Translations under genes and position numbers: made by a program
Notes under the pieces: model-generated
Told to the model about the DNA's origin: nothing
Database searches by the model: none
What the model saw: only the letters and a program-made list of their open reading frames with translations
Sequence record: MZ501089
Source: Escherichia phage KarlGJung
Length of the DNA: 64,000 nucleotides
Direction: 5' to 3' (one strand)
Part shown: piece by piece, positions 3,471-57,981 of the stretch
Numbering within the stretch: position 1 is the first letter of the stretch
Layout of the letters: every line of letters starts with the position of its first letter

Positions 3471-3499
3471 AAAATAAAAAAGGACTCCCGAAGGAGTCC
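3471..3499 (-). terminator. Rho-independent terminator (UUCG hairpin plus U-run)
   Basis: Minus-sense GGACUCC-UUCG-GGAGUCC followed by UUUUUUAUUUU. Confidence 0.65.
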
Positions 3500-3504
3500 T
3501 CAAC

Positions 3505-9812: not shown

Positions 9813-11400
<1,588 letters not shown>

Positions 11401-11408
11401 AATAAAAT

Positions 11409-11422
11409 GGGCCTTGCGGCCC
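11409..11422 (-). other. GNRA-tetraloop hairpin between the Shine-Dalgarno and start codon of denA
   Basis: Minus-sense UAAGGAG-U-GGGCC-GCAA-GGCCC-AUUUUAUU-AUG. Confidence 0.5.
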
Positions 11423-11427
11423 ACTCC

Positions 11428-12606
11428 TTAAAAGTATTTTTTAAAACTCATCATAACTTTATCATCAACATCATTATCAATCTGTGCAACAAGATAAGAT
11501 GACAGTTCTACTTCTTGTGGCGCTGATTGAACATTATCAGAATTAAGATATTCACGAATCCAAGGATATGGATGTTTAACCGGAGCATCGGTAATTGGGC
11601 ATGGAAGACCGCACTGTTTCATACGAGATACAGTTAAGTAATCAATAAAGCTCCACATGCTATTTGTATTTAATCCAGGAACATCGCCATCTTTAAATAA
11701 ATGAACTGCCCAATCTTTTTCTTGACGGTTAACTTCCATGAAAATATCAACTGCTTCTTGTTCACACTCTTGAGCAATTTTAACCCATTCATCACCATCC
11801 GTGCCAAGTTGAAGTTGACGAATAATATATTGTGTACCTTTAAGATGAAGCTGCTCATCACGTGCAATGAACTTCATAATCTTGGCATTACCTTCCATGA
11901 TTTCCATGTTCTTATGGAAGTTAAAGGTACATGCGAAAGATACATAAAAACGAATAGCTTCTAATGCATTAATAACGTGCAAACAGAGGTAAAGAGATTT
12001 CATTAGCTCACGCTTCCAATATGTCTCATGCTCAATAGCATCTTCAATAACGTCTTCGTCTGCATTAATTTCTTTTTGGTATTCGATATCAGCTTTAGCG
12101 TTTTCCCAATAACGAGTTTTAATCAGAACATCATCATAATAACGTCCAATGGATTCAGCACGTTTCATAATAGCTTCATCTAATACAATTTCATCAAATA
12201 CCTTCGATGGATCAGTATAAAGATTTCGCATGATATGTGTATATGAACGGCTGTGAATAGTTTCACTAAAAGTCCATGTAGCAACCCATGTATCAAGGCT
12301 TGGGTCTGAAATTAATGACATAAGTACAGCAGACGGTGCACGACCCTGAATGCTATCCAAAAGTGATTGATACTTCAGGTTGTTAGTAAAAATATTTTGC
12401 TGATACTGAGGAAGCTTATTAAACTGTGCAGCATCCATCATTAAGTTTACTTCTTCAGGACGCCAAAAAAATGATAAAGATTTCTCAATAAGTTCTTCAA
12501 ATACTCTATGTCGTTGAATATCATATCGAGCTAAACCCAATCCAGAACCAAAAAACATCGGCTCAGTCAAAATATTAACAGGGGATGTATTAAAAACTGT
12601 ACTCAT
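11428..12606 (-). CDS. nrdB: ribonucleotide reductase beta subunit (class Ia)
   Basis: 392-aa continuous ORF, ferritin-like RNR small subunit; T4-like N-terminus MSTVFNT...; no intron interruption. Confidence 0.92.
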   Translation of the reverse strand: MSTVFNTSPVNILTEPMFFGSGLGLARYDIQRHRVFEELIEKSLSFFWRPEEVNLMMDAAQFNKLPQYQQNIFTNNLKYQSLLDSIQGRAPSAVLMSLISDPSLDTWVATWTFSETIHSRSYTHIMRNLYTDPSKVFDEIVLDEAIMKRAESIGRYYDDVLIKTRYWENAKADIEYQKEINADEDVIEDAIEHETYWKRELMKSLYLCLHVINALEAIRFYVSFACTFNFHKNMEIMEGNAKIMKFIARDEQLHLKGTQYIIRQLQLGTDGDEWVKIAQECEQEAVDIFMEVNRQEKDWAVHLFKDGDVPGLNTNSMWSFIDYLTVSRMKQCGLPCPITDAPVKHPYPWIREYLNSDNVQSAPQEVELSSYLVAQIDNDVDDKVMMSFKKYF

Positions 12607-13244
12607 TTAGAATCCTTAAATTTACATTTATCATAATGCCATCTTAAAGCATTGCCTTTATTAACTTTCTTGCCACAATGTGGACAAGGCGGATACTCTG
12701 TACCTTGCTTAGTTCTCAAAGAAATCAAATCACGGGTTTCTTTAGTATGAGGAACATCTCTTGTCGGAGAGATTGTACCATACATCGGATTAAGCACGCC
12801 GACTTTAGCAGCAGCTATATTCTTTTTAGCTTCTTCGGTTTTAGGTTTTCTCATGCGAGCTAAATGCTCTTTGGTAAATTTCCTTCCTTTAAGGGCTCTA
12901 CTTATCTTTTCTCTGGTTTCCATAGAAACTTCACGTCCTGTAGCAGCTTCAGATAAACGTCGTCTACCTAATTCGTACAGTTGAGAAGAAATTTTATATG
13001 AGCGATTTTTACCAGTCAAGCACATTAAACCAAAAGCTTTCTTTAATCCTGGGGTGTCATATATTTTACATAAAAGCCAATGAGCTATAAAATGCTCTCT
13101 ACCTGTTAATTCAACTAAATTTTCTTTATCATCAGAACCTCCCATACATCTAGGGATTATATGATGAGTCTCTTTATATCCTAATAAAGGTTCCCGAGCC
13201 TGAGCTCGGGAAATTAGGTCGTTATAGATTTTTTGATAATTCAT
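12603..13244 (-). CDS. mobE: free-standing HNH homing endonuclease (mobE-like)
   Basis: HNH motif HHIIPRCMGGSDDKENLVELTGREHFIAH; repeated NUMOD-like DNA-binding modules (TREKISRALKGRK, TKEHLARMRKPKT, TEEAKKNIAAAKVG); C-terminal Cys/His cluster; lies between nrdA and nrdB like T4 mobE. Confidence 0.7.
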   Translation of the reverse strand: MNYQKIYNDLISRAQAREPLLGYKETHHIIPRCMGGSDDKENLVELTGREHFIAHWLLCKIYDTPGLKKAFGLMCLTGKNRSYKISSQLYELGRRRLSEAATGREVSMETREKISRALKGRKFTKEHLARMRKPKTEEAKKNIAAAKVGVLNPMYGTISPTRDVPHTKETRDLISLRTKQGTEYPPCPHCGKKVNKGNALRWHYDKCKFKDSK

Positions 13245-19931: not shown

Positions 19932-20316
19932 ACTTTTTGAAAGTTTTTCGCAAAAGTTCAATGATTTCATCTACATTGTTTTCGTCAACAATGCAGTGAA
20001 TTTTTGTTACGCCAGAAACCTTGTCTTTGACTTCATCTTCTTCAGAAGTCGGTTCTTTATATTCGCGGAAACAATAAAACTCTTCTTCACTAAGTTCAAA
20101 ATAATCATCACCCATACCATCATCATTATAGATTTCACCATTAGCACAAATGATTTCGGTTACATAATCAAAGCCATCTAAACTTGATATTGATTTAACT
20201 TCAAACCAACCACCATTTTCTTGAATGATGCCGACCATATTAGCATTTGATGAACTAATATCAATGAAAGATTTAATACGGTGTGGATTTAACTCGTATT
20301 TTTTGCCGATTTCCAT
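19930..20316 (-). CDS. hypothetical protein (about 128 aa)
   Basis: ORF track frame trimmed to second ATG (MEIGKKYEL...), which has a GAGGAAAA Shine-Dalgarno. Confidence 0.45.
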   Translation of the reverse strand: MEIGKKYELNPHRIKSFIDISSSNANMVGIIQENGGWFEVKSISSLDGFDYVTEIICANGEIYNDDGMGDDYFELSEEEFYCFREYKEPTSEEDEVKDKVSGVTKIHCIVDENNVDEIIELLRKTFKK

Positions 20317-20361
20317 TTTGATTTTCCTCATTTTAATAGGGGCTTAATAGCCCCTTGATAA

Positions 20362-37360: not shown

Positions 37361-37389
37361 AATAAAAAAGGGAGAGCCGAGGCTCTCCC
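37361..37389 (-). terminator. Rho-independent terminator after gene 52
   Basis: Minus-sense GGGAGAGCC-UCGG-CUCUCCC followed by UUUUUUAUUU. Confidence 0.65.
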
Positions 37390-37394
37390 TAAAA

Positions 37395-39172: not shown

Positions 39173-39253
39173 TCACTGGCGTCCGAAGACGCCTTTAGTT
39201 TTAAGATTATTACGATAGAACTGCATCACGTGTTCGTTGTGGAAATTACTCAT
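39173..39253 (-). CDS. stp: Stp peptide (26 aa)
   Basis: Hand-translated [26 protein letters not shown], matching the T4 Stp peptide as I recall it; start overlaps the ndd stop (TAATG). Confidence 0.75.
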
Positions 39254-41842: not shown

Positions 41843-41861
41843 AATTTTCCTTAGTTAAGGG

Positions 41862-41873
41862 CCGAAGCCCTTA
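41862..41873 (-). other. intercistronic UUCG hairpin immediately after the rIIB stop
   Basis: Minus-sense GGGC-UUCG-GCCC followed by UUAACUAAGGAAAAUUAUG; a similar hairpin lies at 41631..41642 upstream of denB. Confidence 0.5.
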
Positions 41874-57947: not shown

Positions 57948-57973
57948 TGAAAAAAGGACTCCCGAAGGAGTCC
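57948..57973 (-). terminator. Rho-independent terminator after soc
   Basis: Minus-sense GGACUCC-UUCG-GGAGUCC followed by UUUUUUCAUUU. Confidence 0.65.
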
Positions 57974-57981
57974 TTGAATTA

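Follow-up and report, generated by a model that had tools for sequence, protein, structure and literature searches.

The window analysed here, 64,000 nucleotides of Escherichia phage KarlGJung (sequence record MZ501089), is by its sequence a Tequatrovirus, and the DNA around nrdB and denA is 99.6% identical to that of Tequatrovirus phages such as AR1 and RB14. All local genes share the minus strand and follow one another as nrdA, a mobE-type HNH gene, nrdB, denA and rnlA (Table 1). In the window, nrdB is a continuous ORF of 392 aa that carries neither a group I intron nor a remnant of I-TevIII; in T4, by contrast, the gene is a join of two pieces. Between nrdA and nrdB there is an intact 213-aa mobE-type HNH ORF (12603-13244, minus strand), which is missing in AR1 and whose stop overlaps the nrdB start by 4 nt; its T4 counterpart is annotated as mobE (141 aa) plus nrdB.1. 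A T4 omics paper, which uses coarse temporal classes, assigns nrdB RNA to 'early' and denA to 'middle'. The nrdB-denA junction itself has exactly the same letters in phage T4 as in the window. As RNA it reads ...AAA UAC UUU UAA GGAG U-GGGCC-GCAA-GGCCC-A UUUUAUU AUG AAA GAA...

Table 1. Features of the nrdB-denA junction (window coordinates)
Feature	Position	Strand	Basis or remark
nrdB, ribonucleotide reductase small subunit, 392 aa, intron-less	11428..12606	-	ORF list; DNA 99.6% identical to nrdB of AR1, RB14
nrdB stop UAA	11430-11428	-	sequence
Shine-Dalgarno AAGGAG; its initial AA doubles as the end of the nrdB stop	11424..11429	-	
Hairpin U-GGGCC-GCAA-GGCCC-A, 6-bp stem, GNRA tetraloop closed by C-G	11408..11423	-	
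U-rich spacer UUUUAUU, hairpin foot to AUG; also possible terminator U tract	11401..11407	-	
denA, endonuclease II, GIY-YIG, 136 aa	10990..11400	-	AUG 11400-11398
In-frame GUG, the RefSeq T4 denA start (144 aa); overlaps SD and hairpin	11422..11424	-	ORF list, NC_000866

The peculiarity of this junction is the distance between the Shine-Dalgarno sequence (SD) and the denA start codon. An earlier note on this DNA had described AAGGAG, overlapping the nrdB stop, as the only good SD for denA and had placed it about 24 nt from the ATG; by our count, 23 nt lie between its last G and the A of AUG. The GGGCC-GCAA-GGCCC hairpin that the note saw between the two is present, and the folded spacing, estimated there at about 10 nt, comes to 7 nt with the 6-bp stem or to 9 nt if only the five G-C pairs are counted. 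Likewise, the nrdB stop and the denA AUG are 27 nt apart in the linear sequence and 11 nt apart with the hairpin folded. The description of the distal SD as the only good one is borne out by pairing energies: its duplex with the anti-SD reaches -8.7 kcal/mol, compared with -3.0 kcal/mol for the best denA site at canonical distance and a median of -5.9 kcal/mol at normal distance over the genes of the window. We also searched for a closer SD, the finding named in the earlier note as speaking against its reading, and that same -3.0 kcal/mol was the best the canonical window had to offer. An AAGG does occur in the loop and 3' arm of the hairpin; it is paired, and lineages with a UUCG loop have no such AAGG. 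The automatic annotation of MZ753803.1 puts a denA ribosome_binding_site on an AGG (L002 587-589, corresponding to window 11415-11413) that spans the loop and the 3' arm.

The hairpin is predicted to be very stable. In isolation it folds with -11.6 kcal/mol, and within 100 nt of context its stem has a pairing probability of about 1.0. The 71-nt junction context has a minimum free energy (MFE) of -18 kcal/mol (z = -3.1), and none of 200 dinucleotide shuffles folds as well. Stable perfect-stem tetraloop hairpins are strongly enriched in the window as a whole, with 12 cases against a mean of 0.53 in 30 dinucleotide shuffles. This enrichment, together with the covariation of the stem described below, shows that the denA hairpin is not a product of chance. 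A scan of positions 10500-12500 against Rfam at permissive E-values gave sub-threshold matches only, the best being L20_leader with 24.7 bits against a gathering threshold of 58.7.

To see the junction in its phylogenetic breadth, we gathered nrdB-denA junctions from two sources, annotated phages of many genera and IMG/VR contigs retrieved with a DenA alignment. After de-duplication the set held 27 distinct junctions from at least 10 Tevenvirinae genera, among them Tequatro-, Mosig-, Dhaka-, Gelderland-, Winkler-, Gapriver-, Karam- and Roskildevirus, unclassified Klebsiella and Serratia phages and IMG/VR metagenomic relatives. The same layout recurs in all 27, although, because the phages compared are phylogenetically related, such counts do not represent independent events. 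Overlapping the nrdB stop or abutting it is an SD-like purine run (AAGGAG, AAGGA, AAGG, AAGAG or UAGGAG); 0-3 nt past this run a GC-rich stem of 4-7 pairs starts, and a tail of 6-10 nt devoid of an SD or any purine run leads to the AUG. Nominal SD-AUG spacing ranges from 21 to 28 nt, while the effective spacing is 6-10 nt in 26 junctions and 14 nt in the remaining one. This layout is kept while the letters of tail and stem drift.

The way in which the stem drifts is informative. Its variants include GGGCC/GGCCC, GGGAC/GUCCC, GGGGC/GCCCC and GGGAGAC/GUCUCCC. In a loop-anchored alignment of 24 distinct hairpins, 89.9% of the cells are paired and five of the seven pairs display compensatory changes; the covariation score is 0.431 against 0.180 in shuffles, with none of 500 shuffles reaching the observed value, and slid registers do much worse than the true one. 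The loop is UUCG in nearly all genera and GCAA or GUAA in Tequatrovirus (GUAA in one variant), alongside single cases of UUAG, UUUG and a 5-nt CUUGA. Since the loops swap among the extra-stable classes UUCG, GCAA and GUAA, it is stability rather than sequence that is being kept. The GGA(G) following the nrdB UAA is also kept across genera, and because it is non-coding, its retention cannot be explained by the NrdB protein.

Equally telling are the phages that depart from this layout. In Krischvirus, another gene precedes denA and a hairpin is followed by denA's own strong SD, GAGGAAAGGA, near the start. A Tevenvirinae-like contig (L046, IMGVR_UViG_2974786931_000001, about 560-605), with a denA relative of 73% identity, has lost both hairpin and SD, and its nrdB stop overlaps the denA start as ATGA, making it a natural 'deletion mutant' of the element. 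Aeromonas phages have denA overlapping a different upstream gene, also as ATGA, and in Slopekvirus denA begins 3 nt past its upstream gene. Thus, wherever the arrangement is absent, a normal SD, a coupling overlap or a 3-nt gap takes its place, which argues that it is a solution to the problem of initiation rather than an incidental feature.

The same comparison bears on the choice of start codon. RefSeq T4 (NC_000866.4) annotates denA at 137517-137951, that is, from the in-frame GUG, which opens the longest ORF; WG01 denA is annotated from an equivalent upstream in-frame AUG, while AR1 and most relatives are annotated from the AUG used here (136 aa). Were the GUG the genuine start, the hairpin would be coding, and the extension would have to be translated through a structure of -11.6 kcal/mol. 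Because the GUG shares its first G with the SD, there would moreover be no spacing at all between them. Of the 27 junctions, only 6 offer an in-frame start at -24, and in several the frame is closed by a stop at -9, -24 or -27, whereas the AUG is conserved in all relatives compared. Crystallised EndoII (PDB 2WSH, 'endonuclease II') corresponds to the product from the AUG over residues 1-136 (E = 1e-86). We therefore rejected the GUG on the grounds of conservation and the 2WSH match, and regard initiation there as barely credible. This has a bearing on annotation, in that the upstream GUG or AUG given as the denA start in RefSeq T4 and some relatives falls within the element.

Could the AAGGAG be irrelevant to denA altogether? 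Initiation might be independent of any SD and proceed through ribosomal protein S1 bound to the U- or AU-rich region at the AUG, the hairpin being just one of the many intercistronic terminator or stabiliser hairpins of T4. The denA tail and first codons are indeed AU-rich (UUUUAUUAUGAAAGAAAUU), and several of the 12 stable hairpins in the window are clear terminators followed by promoters. However, this would leave the non-coding GGA(G) past the UAA without a reason to persist across genera, and the tails are not always U-rich (GUAAAGCU, UUGCCC). Neither does it fit the other genes of the window. Four other stable hairpins directly precede a gene there, each time in the order hairpin, GAGGAAAAU or AAGGAAAAUU, AUG; every one of these genes has its own SD, and denA is the only case among window hairpins directly preceding genes in which the SD lies 5' of the hairpin. 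We consider S1-driven initiation very improbable.

An SD separated from its start codon by a structure is not without precedent in T4. According to a review (PMC3014915), a structure between SD and AUG cuts the spacing from 22 to 5 nt at gene 38, a stem-loop cuts it from 27 to 11 nt at gene 25, and destabilising mutations at both genes reduce initiation; for gene 25, reporter and DMS data are cited (Nivinskas 1999; Malys and Nivinskas 2009). The resemblance between the T4 gene 37-38 junction (UAAGGAGAGGGGCUUCGGCCCUUCUAAAUAUG; longer stretch gcaUAAGGAGAGGGGCUUCGGCCCUUCUAAAUAUG) and nrdB-denA is close. Both have an upstream UAA overlapping AAGGAG, followed immediately by a GC-rich tetraloop hairpin, a short tail and the AUG. 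Nominal and effective spacings are 22 and 5 nt for gene 38 and 23 and 7 nt for denA, and in one and the same scan the SD and hairpin energies are -8.1 and -13.0 for gene 38 and -8.0 and -13.7 for denA. There are differences as well. The gene 38 loop is UUCG, whereas the denA loop is GCAA here (mostly UUCG in other genera); gene 38 belongs to the late genes, denA to the prereplicative ones; and the gene 38 tail, CUAAAU, is not U-rich and does not look like a terminator (d = -52), unlike UUUUAUU of denA. The effect on initiation has been shown experimentally for genes 38 and 25, as reported in the same review, while denA is known from sequence comparison.

Gene 25, at the 26-25 junction, is a second parallel. 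It shares with denA a distant SD and an intervening stem-loop, and it is picked up by the census described below, but its stem is AU-rich, weaker (-6.4) and lacks a special tetraloop, its SD is GAGG, and its stop/start geometry differs. The two also differ in how far they extend: the gene 25 arrangement is kept in close T-even phages and absent in distant relatives (PMC3014915), whereas conservation of the denA element reaches further, across at least 10 genera.

How often such an arrangement arises can be judged from a census of the whole assembled T4 genome on both strands, in which we required an SD of at most -5.5 kcal/mol within 12 nt 5' of a hairpin of at most -4 kcal/mol, and an ATG or GTG 3-12 nt past the hairpin opening an ORF of at least 40 codons. 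Nine sites passed, and those at annotated starts belong to genes 25, 38, denA and 30.6. Gene 30.6 has an ordinary canonical GAGG in the 3' flank of its hairpin, so that 25, 38 and denA are the only annotated starts of the T4 genome found by the census that have no SD of their own. With stricter thresholds (hairpin at most -8, SD at most -7), only denA and 38 remained, and the strict census gave no matches in a reversed decoy and six shuffles. The census thus recovers both published split sites and adds exactly one, denA.

Within the window, the ORF start at 20331 had come up as a second candidate for a split ribosome-binding site (RBS), but it proved false: the start of frd.2 at AUG 20316 has its own GAGGAAAAU. 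The stretch 20316-20355 (minus strand) holds a hairpin, AGGGGCUAUUAAGCCCCU, and past it two in-frame AUGs. The first, at 20331 (133 aa, no SD), is the start annotated in AR1, while AUG 20316 gives 128 aa, as in T4 frd.2; with its good GAGGAAAAU, the latter is the likelier start.

Taken together, the layout of the 27 junctions, the covariation, the likeness to gene 38 and the census support the proposal of the earlier note that the hairpin may bring SD and start codon together. On this comparative evidence, we think that the nrdB-denA junction is probably a split ('accommodated') RBS bridged by a hairpin, and there is a reasonable case for counting denA as the third such site in T4, after genes 25 and 38. 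Having no SD at normal distance, denA would use the AAGGAG on the nrdB stop, 23 nt upstream. The extra-stable tetraloop hairpin would stay folded and bulge out of the mRNA path of the 30S subunit, so that the SD-antiSD helix and the denA AUG would end up about 7 unpaired nt apart, a workable spacing. A C(GNRA)G or C(UUCG)G hairpin should also refold very fast, and the site would therefore be restored each time a ribosome finishing nrdB melts the hairpin. If so, the hairpin would be expected to enhance denA initiation.

The mechanism class is thus already known, and what is new here is the wide, covarying conservation and the near-identity to the gene 38 cassette. In the searchable literature we came across no paper on the denA RBS, its hairpin, its translation or its 3' ends, though an earlier mention in older T4 work is possible. 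A hairpin-bridged RBS has been a textbook curiosity known from two T4 genes, and a third case would make it look less like an oddity and more like a reusable solution. There are practical consequences too. Automatic annotation tools label the hairpin as a terminator only or put the RBS inside the stem, and for RBS prediction and design the denA case supports skipping very stable tetraloop hairpins when SD-start spacing is counted.

Would the structure perhaps do the opposite and hide the start site? The earlier reports of hairpins that sequester the RBS in T4-type phages concern e, I-TevI and Aeh1 mobE (PMC3014915), and denA has in common with them a stable local hairpin at the initiation region and a product, a nuclease, whose level should be limited. 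According to this alternative, the hairpin would be extended by pairing of the SD with the U tract and of the stop region with the AUG, forming a negative element that limits a potentially toxic nuclease and yields only to ribosomes on the last stretch of nrdB. The MFE fold of the 71-nt context does pair GGAG with UUUU and CUUUUA with UGAAAG, and the unpaired probabilities predicted in the window are 0.20 for the SD and 0.43 for the AUG. Yet the outer pairs, G.U or A-U, follow from composition only, since a purine run faces a tail rich in U; columns 1-2 show no compensatory change, and column 3 is paired in only 54% of cells. Predicted accessibility of the SD follows no trend across lineages, its unpaired probability lying anywhere between 0.03 and 0.72. 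Gene 38, where the structure improves initiation according to the review, has the same predicted extension, and the fixed 6-10 nt tail would be left unexplained. In e, I-TevI and Aeh1 mobE, moreover, translation is blocked and the stem itself includes the SD or the AUG, whereas the conserved denA core stem contains neither. Chiefly because the outer pairs lack compensation and gene 38 extends alike, we give this alternative a low weight and consider sequestration of the denA site highly unlikely.

The serious rival to a bridged SD is termination-reinitiation, in which ribosomes that finish nrdB do not leave the mRNA but begin anew at the AUG 27 nt further on. The hairpin would then be mainly a terminator or a stabiliser of the nrdB mRNA 3' end, and the SD would at most tether the ribosome. 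The SD overlaps the stop in every junction, and since the stop is 4-5 nt from the stem, a ribosome ending nrdB must melt it. Coupling mechanisms of this type have been reviewed (PMC12548453), and simple patterns reveal no promoter-like site just upstream of denA. The replacement of the element by an ATGA overlap without an SD in L046 and the ATGA overlap with a different upstream gene in the Aeromonas phages, the only true ATGA stop/start overlaps found, fit reinitiation as well as they fit bridging. Nevertheless, reinitiation in its pure form could do without a conserved SD and without a tail held at 6-10 nt, and scanning from stop to start would be hindered by the stable hairpin on the way. 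The terminator role that it assigns to the hairpin sits poorly with L051, L052 and Mosigvirus, which lack the U tract and keep both hairpin and spacing. Finally, gene 38, whose cassette is nearly the same, is reported to use a bridged SD (PMC3014915). Reinitiation as the main route to denA therefore seems unlikely to us, although it may act jointly with bridging.

The two processes might even be combined. The series 'stop on AAGGAG, tetraloop hairpin, ~7 nt, AUG' could be a dedicated device for handing over ribosomes at both nrdB-denA and 37-38, a rather doubtful idea at present. A ribosome terminating at the UAA would melt the hairpin and then be held by the SD on the stop codon, and instant refolding of the tetraloop hairpin would bring the AUG to the P site. 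Synthesis of denA would in that case be a fixed fraction of nrdB termination events, and the presence of almost the same sequence at two junctions that are unrelated would point to a regulatory module that is portable. The T4 37-38 junction (L068 323-352; T4 159622-159651) resembles the denA junctions of Karamvirus and of L053 over 30 nt, with the near-common sequence UAAGGAGAGGG(G/C)CUUCGG(C/G)CCCUU..., which hints that the cassette may have been copied between the two loci. The nrdB-denA junction offers a clean test system for asking which of bridging, reinitiation after nrdB and termination controls how much of this host-DNA-degrading nuclease is made.

As for termination, the earlier note had suggested that the hairpin could also act as a partial terminator, and here the outcome is divided: the idea is plausible for Tequatrovirus, but the U tract on which it depends is not conserved elsewhere. 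In the window, a GC-rich 6-bp stem with five G-C pairs is followed by UUUUAUU, which is the layout of a terminator. ARNOLD annotates the identical 16 nt as a putative terminator in MK327939 (phage G4498), and with an approximate score of the d'Aubenton-Carafa type we obtained a discriminant of +24.7 and a T-tail score of 3.94. A useful yardstick is the weak terminator inside mobE (window 13212-13191), which ends 30-50% of transcripts (PMC2790892, Wilson and Edgell 2009) and, like the denA hairpin, combines a GC stem, a 4-nt loop and a short interrupted U tract within the nrd operon. In our implementation this proven terminator scores -24, so the discriminant is to be read as approximate only; since the denA hairpin outscores it, partial termination is plausible. 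Unlike the mobE terminator, however, the denA hairpin is directly followed by a start codon with no SD between, and its U tract is not kept outside Tequatrovirus. The tract is poor in many genera and absent in L051 (GUAAAGCU) and L052 (AUAAAGCU), both of which retain hairpin, SD and spacing, and T-tail scores are down to 0.62 in these two and 1.22 in Mosigvirus. Because genera that keep hairpin and spacing can do without the U tract, termination is not the reason for which the element is conserved, and it is at most a lineage-specific second function.

In Tequatrovirus, judging from the letters, the hairpin with its UUUUAUU probably ends or pauses some transcripts or protects the 3' end of nrdB mRNA, which would keep the nuclease low and tied to nrdB transcription. 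A ribosome close behind the polymerase is known in principle to prevent a hairpin from forming (PMC12548453). Since only 4-5 nt separate the nrdB stop from the stem, such a ribosome should do so here as it finishes nrdB, and read-through into denA would then depend on nrdB translation. The built-in terminator scan did not list the denA hairpin, probably owing to a G.U extension of the stem that consumes the U tract. Patterns for MotA boxes and late promoters found nothing in the 1.3 kb upstream of denA, a weak negative because the pattern also missed the published nrdB middle promoter.

We also considered cleavage of the denA GGAG by RegB and rejected it. The published consensus, GGAGRAYARAA, is not matched by the 3' context, GGAGUGGGCCG; at this site most genera carry GGAA, GGAC or GGAU; and GGAGs beside stable structures of the UUCG type have been reported to be RegB-resistant. 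Judged by sequence, RegB cleavage here is unlikely.

Other hairpins of the window display recurring arrangements of their own. UUCG hairpins at 2603-2618, 39178-39193 and 41856-41873 (minus strand) are followed by GAGGAAAAU or AAGGAAAAUU and an AUG within 12-16 nt, a module of 'hairpin, SD, start' that is the reverse of the order at denA. The hairpin at 41873-41856 begins UAAGGGC, which places the upstream stop codon within the stem. Three very stable tetraloop hairpins, two with UUCG and one with CUCG, lie at 3481-3500, 37369-37390 and 57954-57975 (minus strand). Each precedes UUUUUAUUU or UUUUCAUUU and then a promoter-like GUUUAC... with a -10-like element, and they look like units of terminator and early promoter between transcription units.
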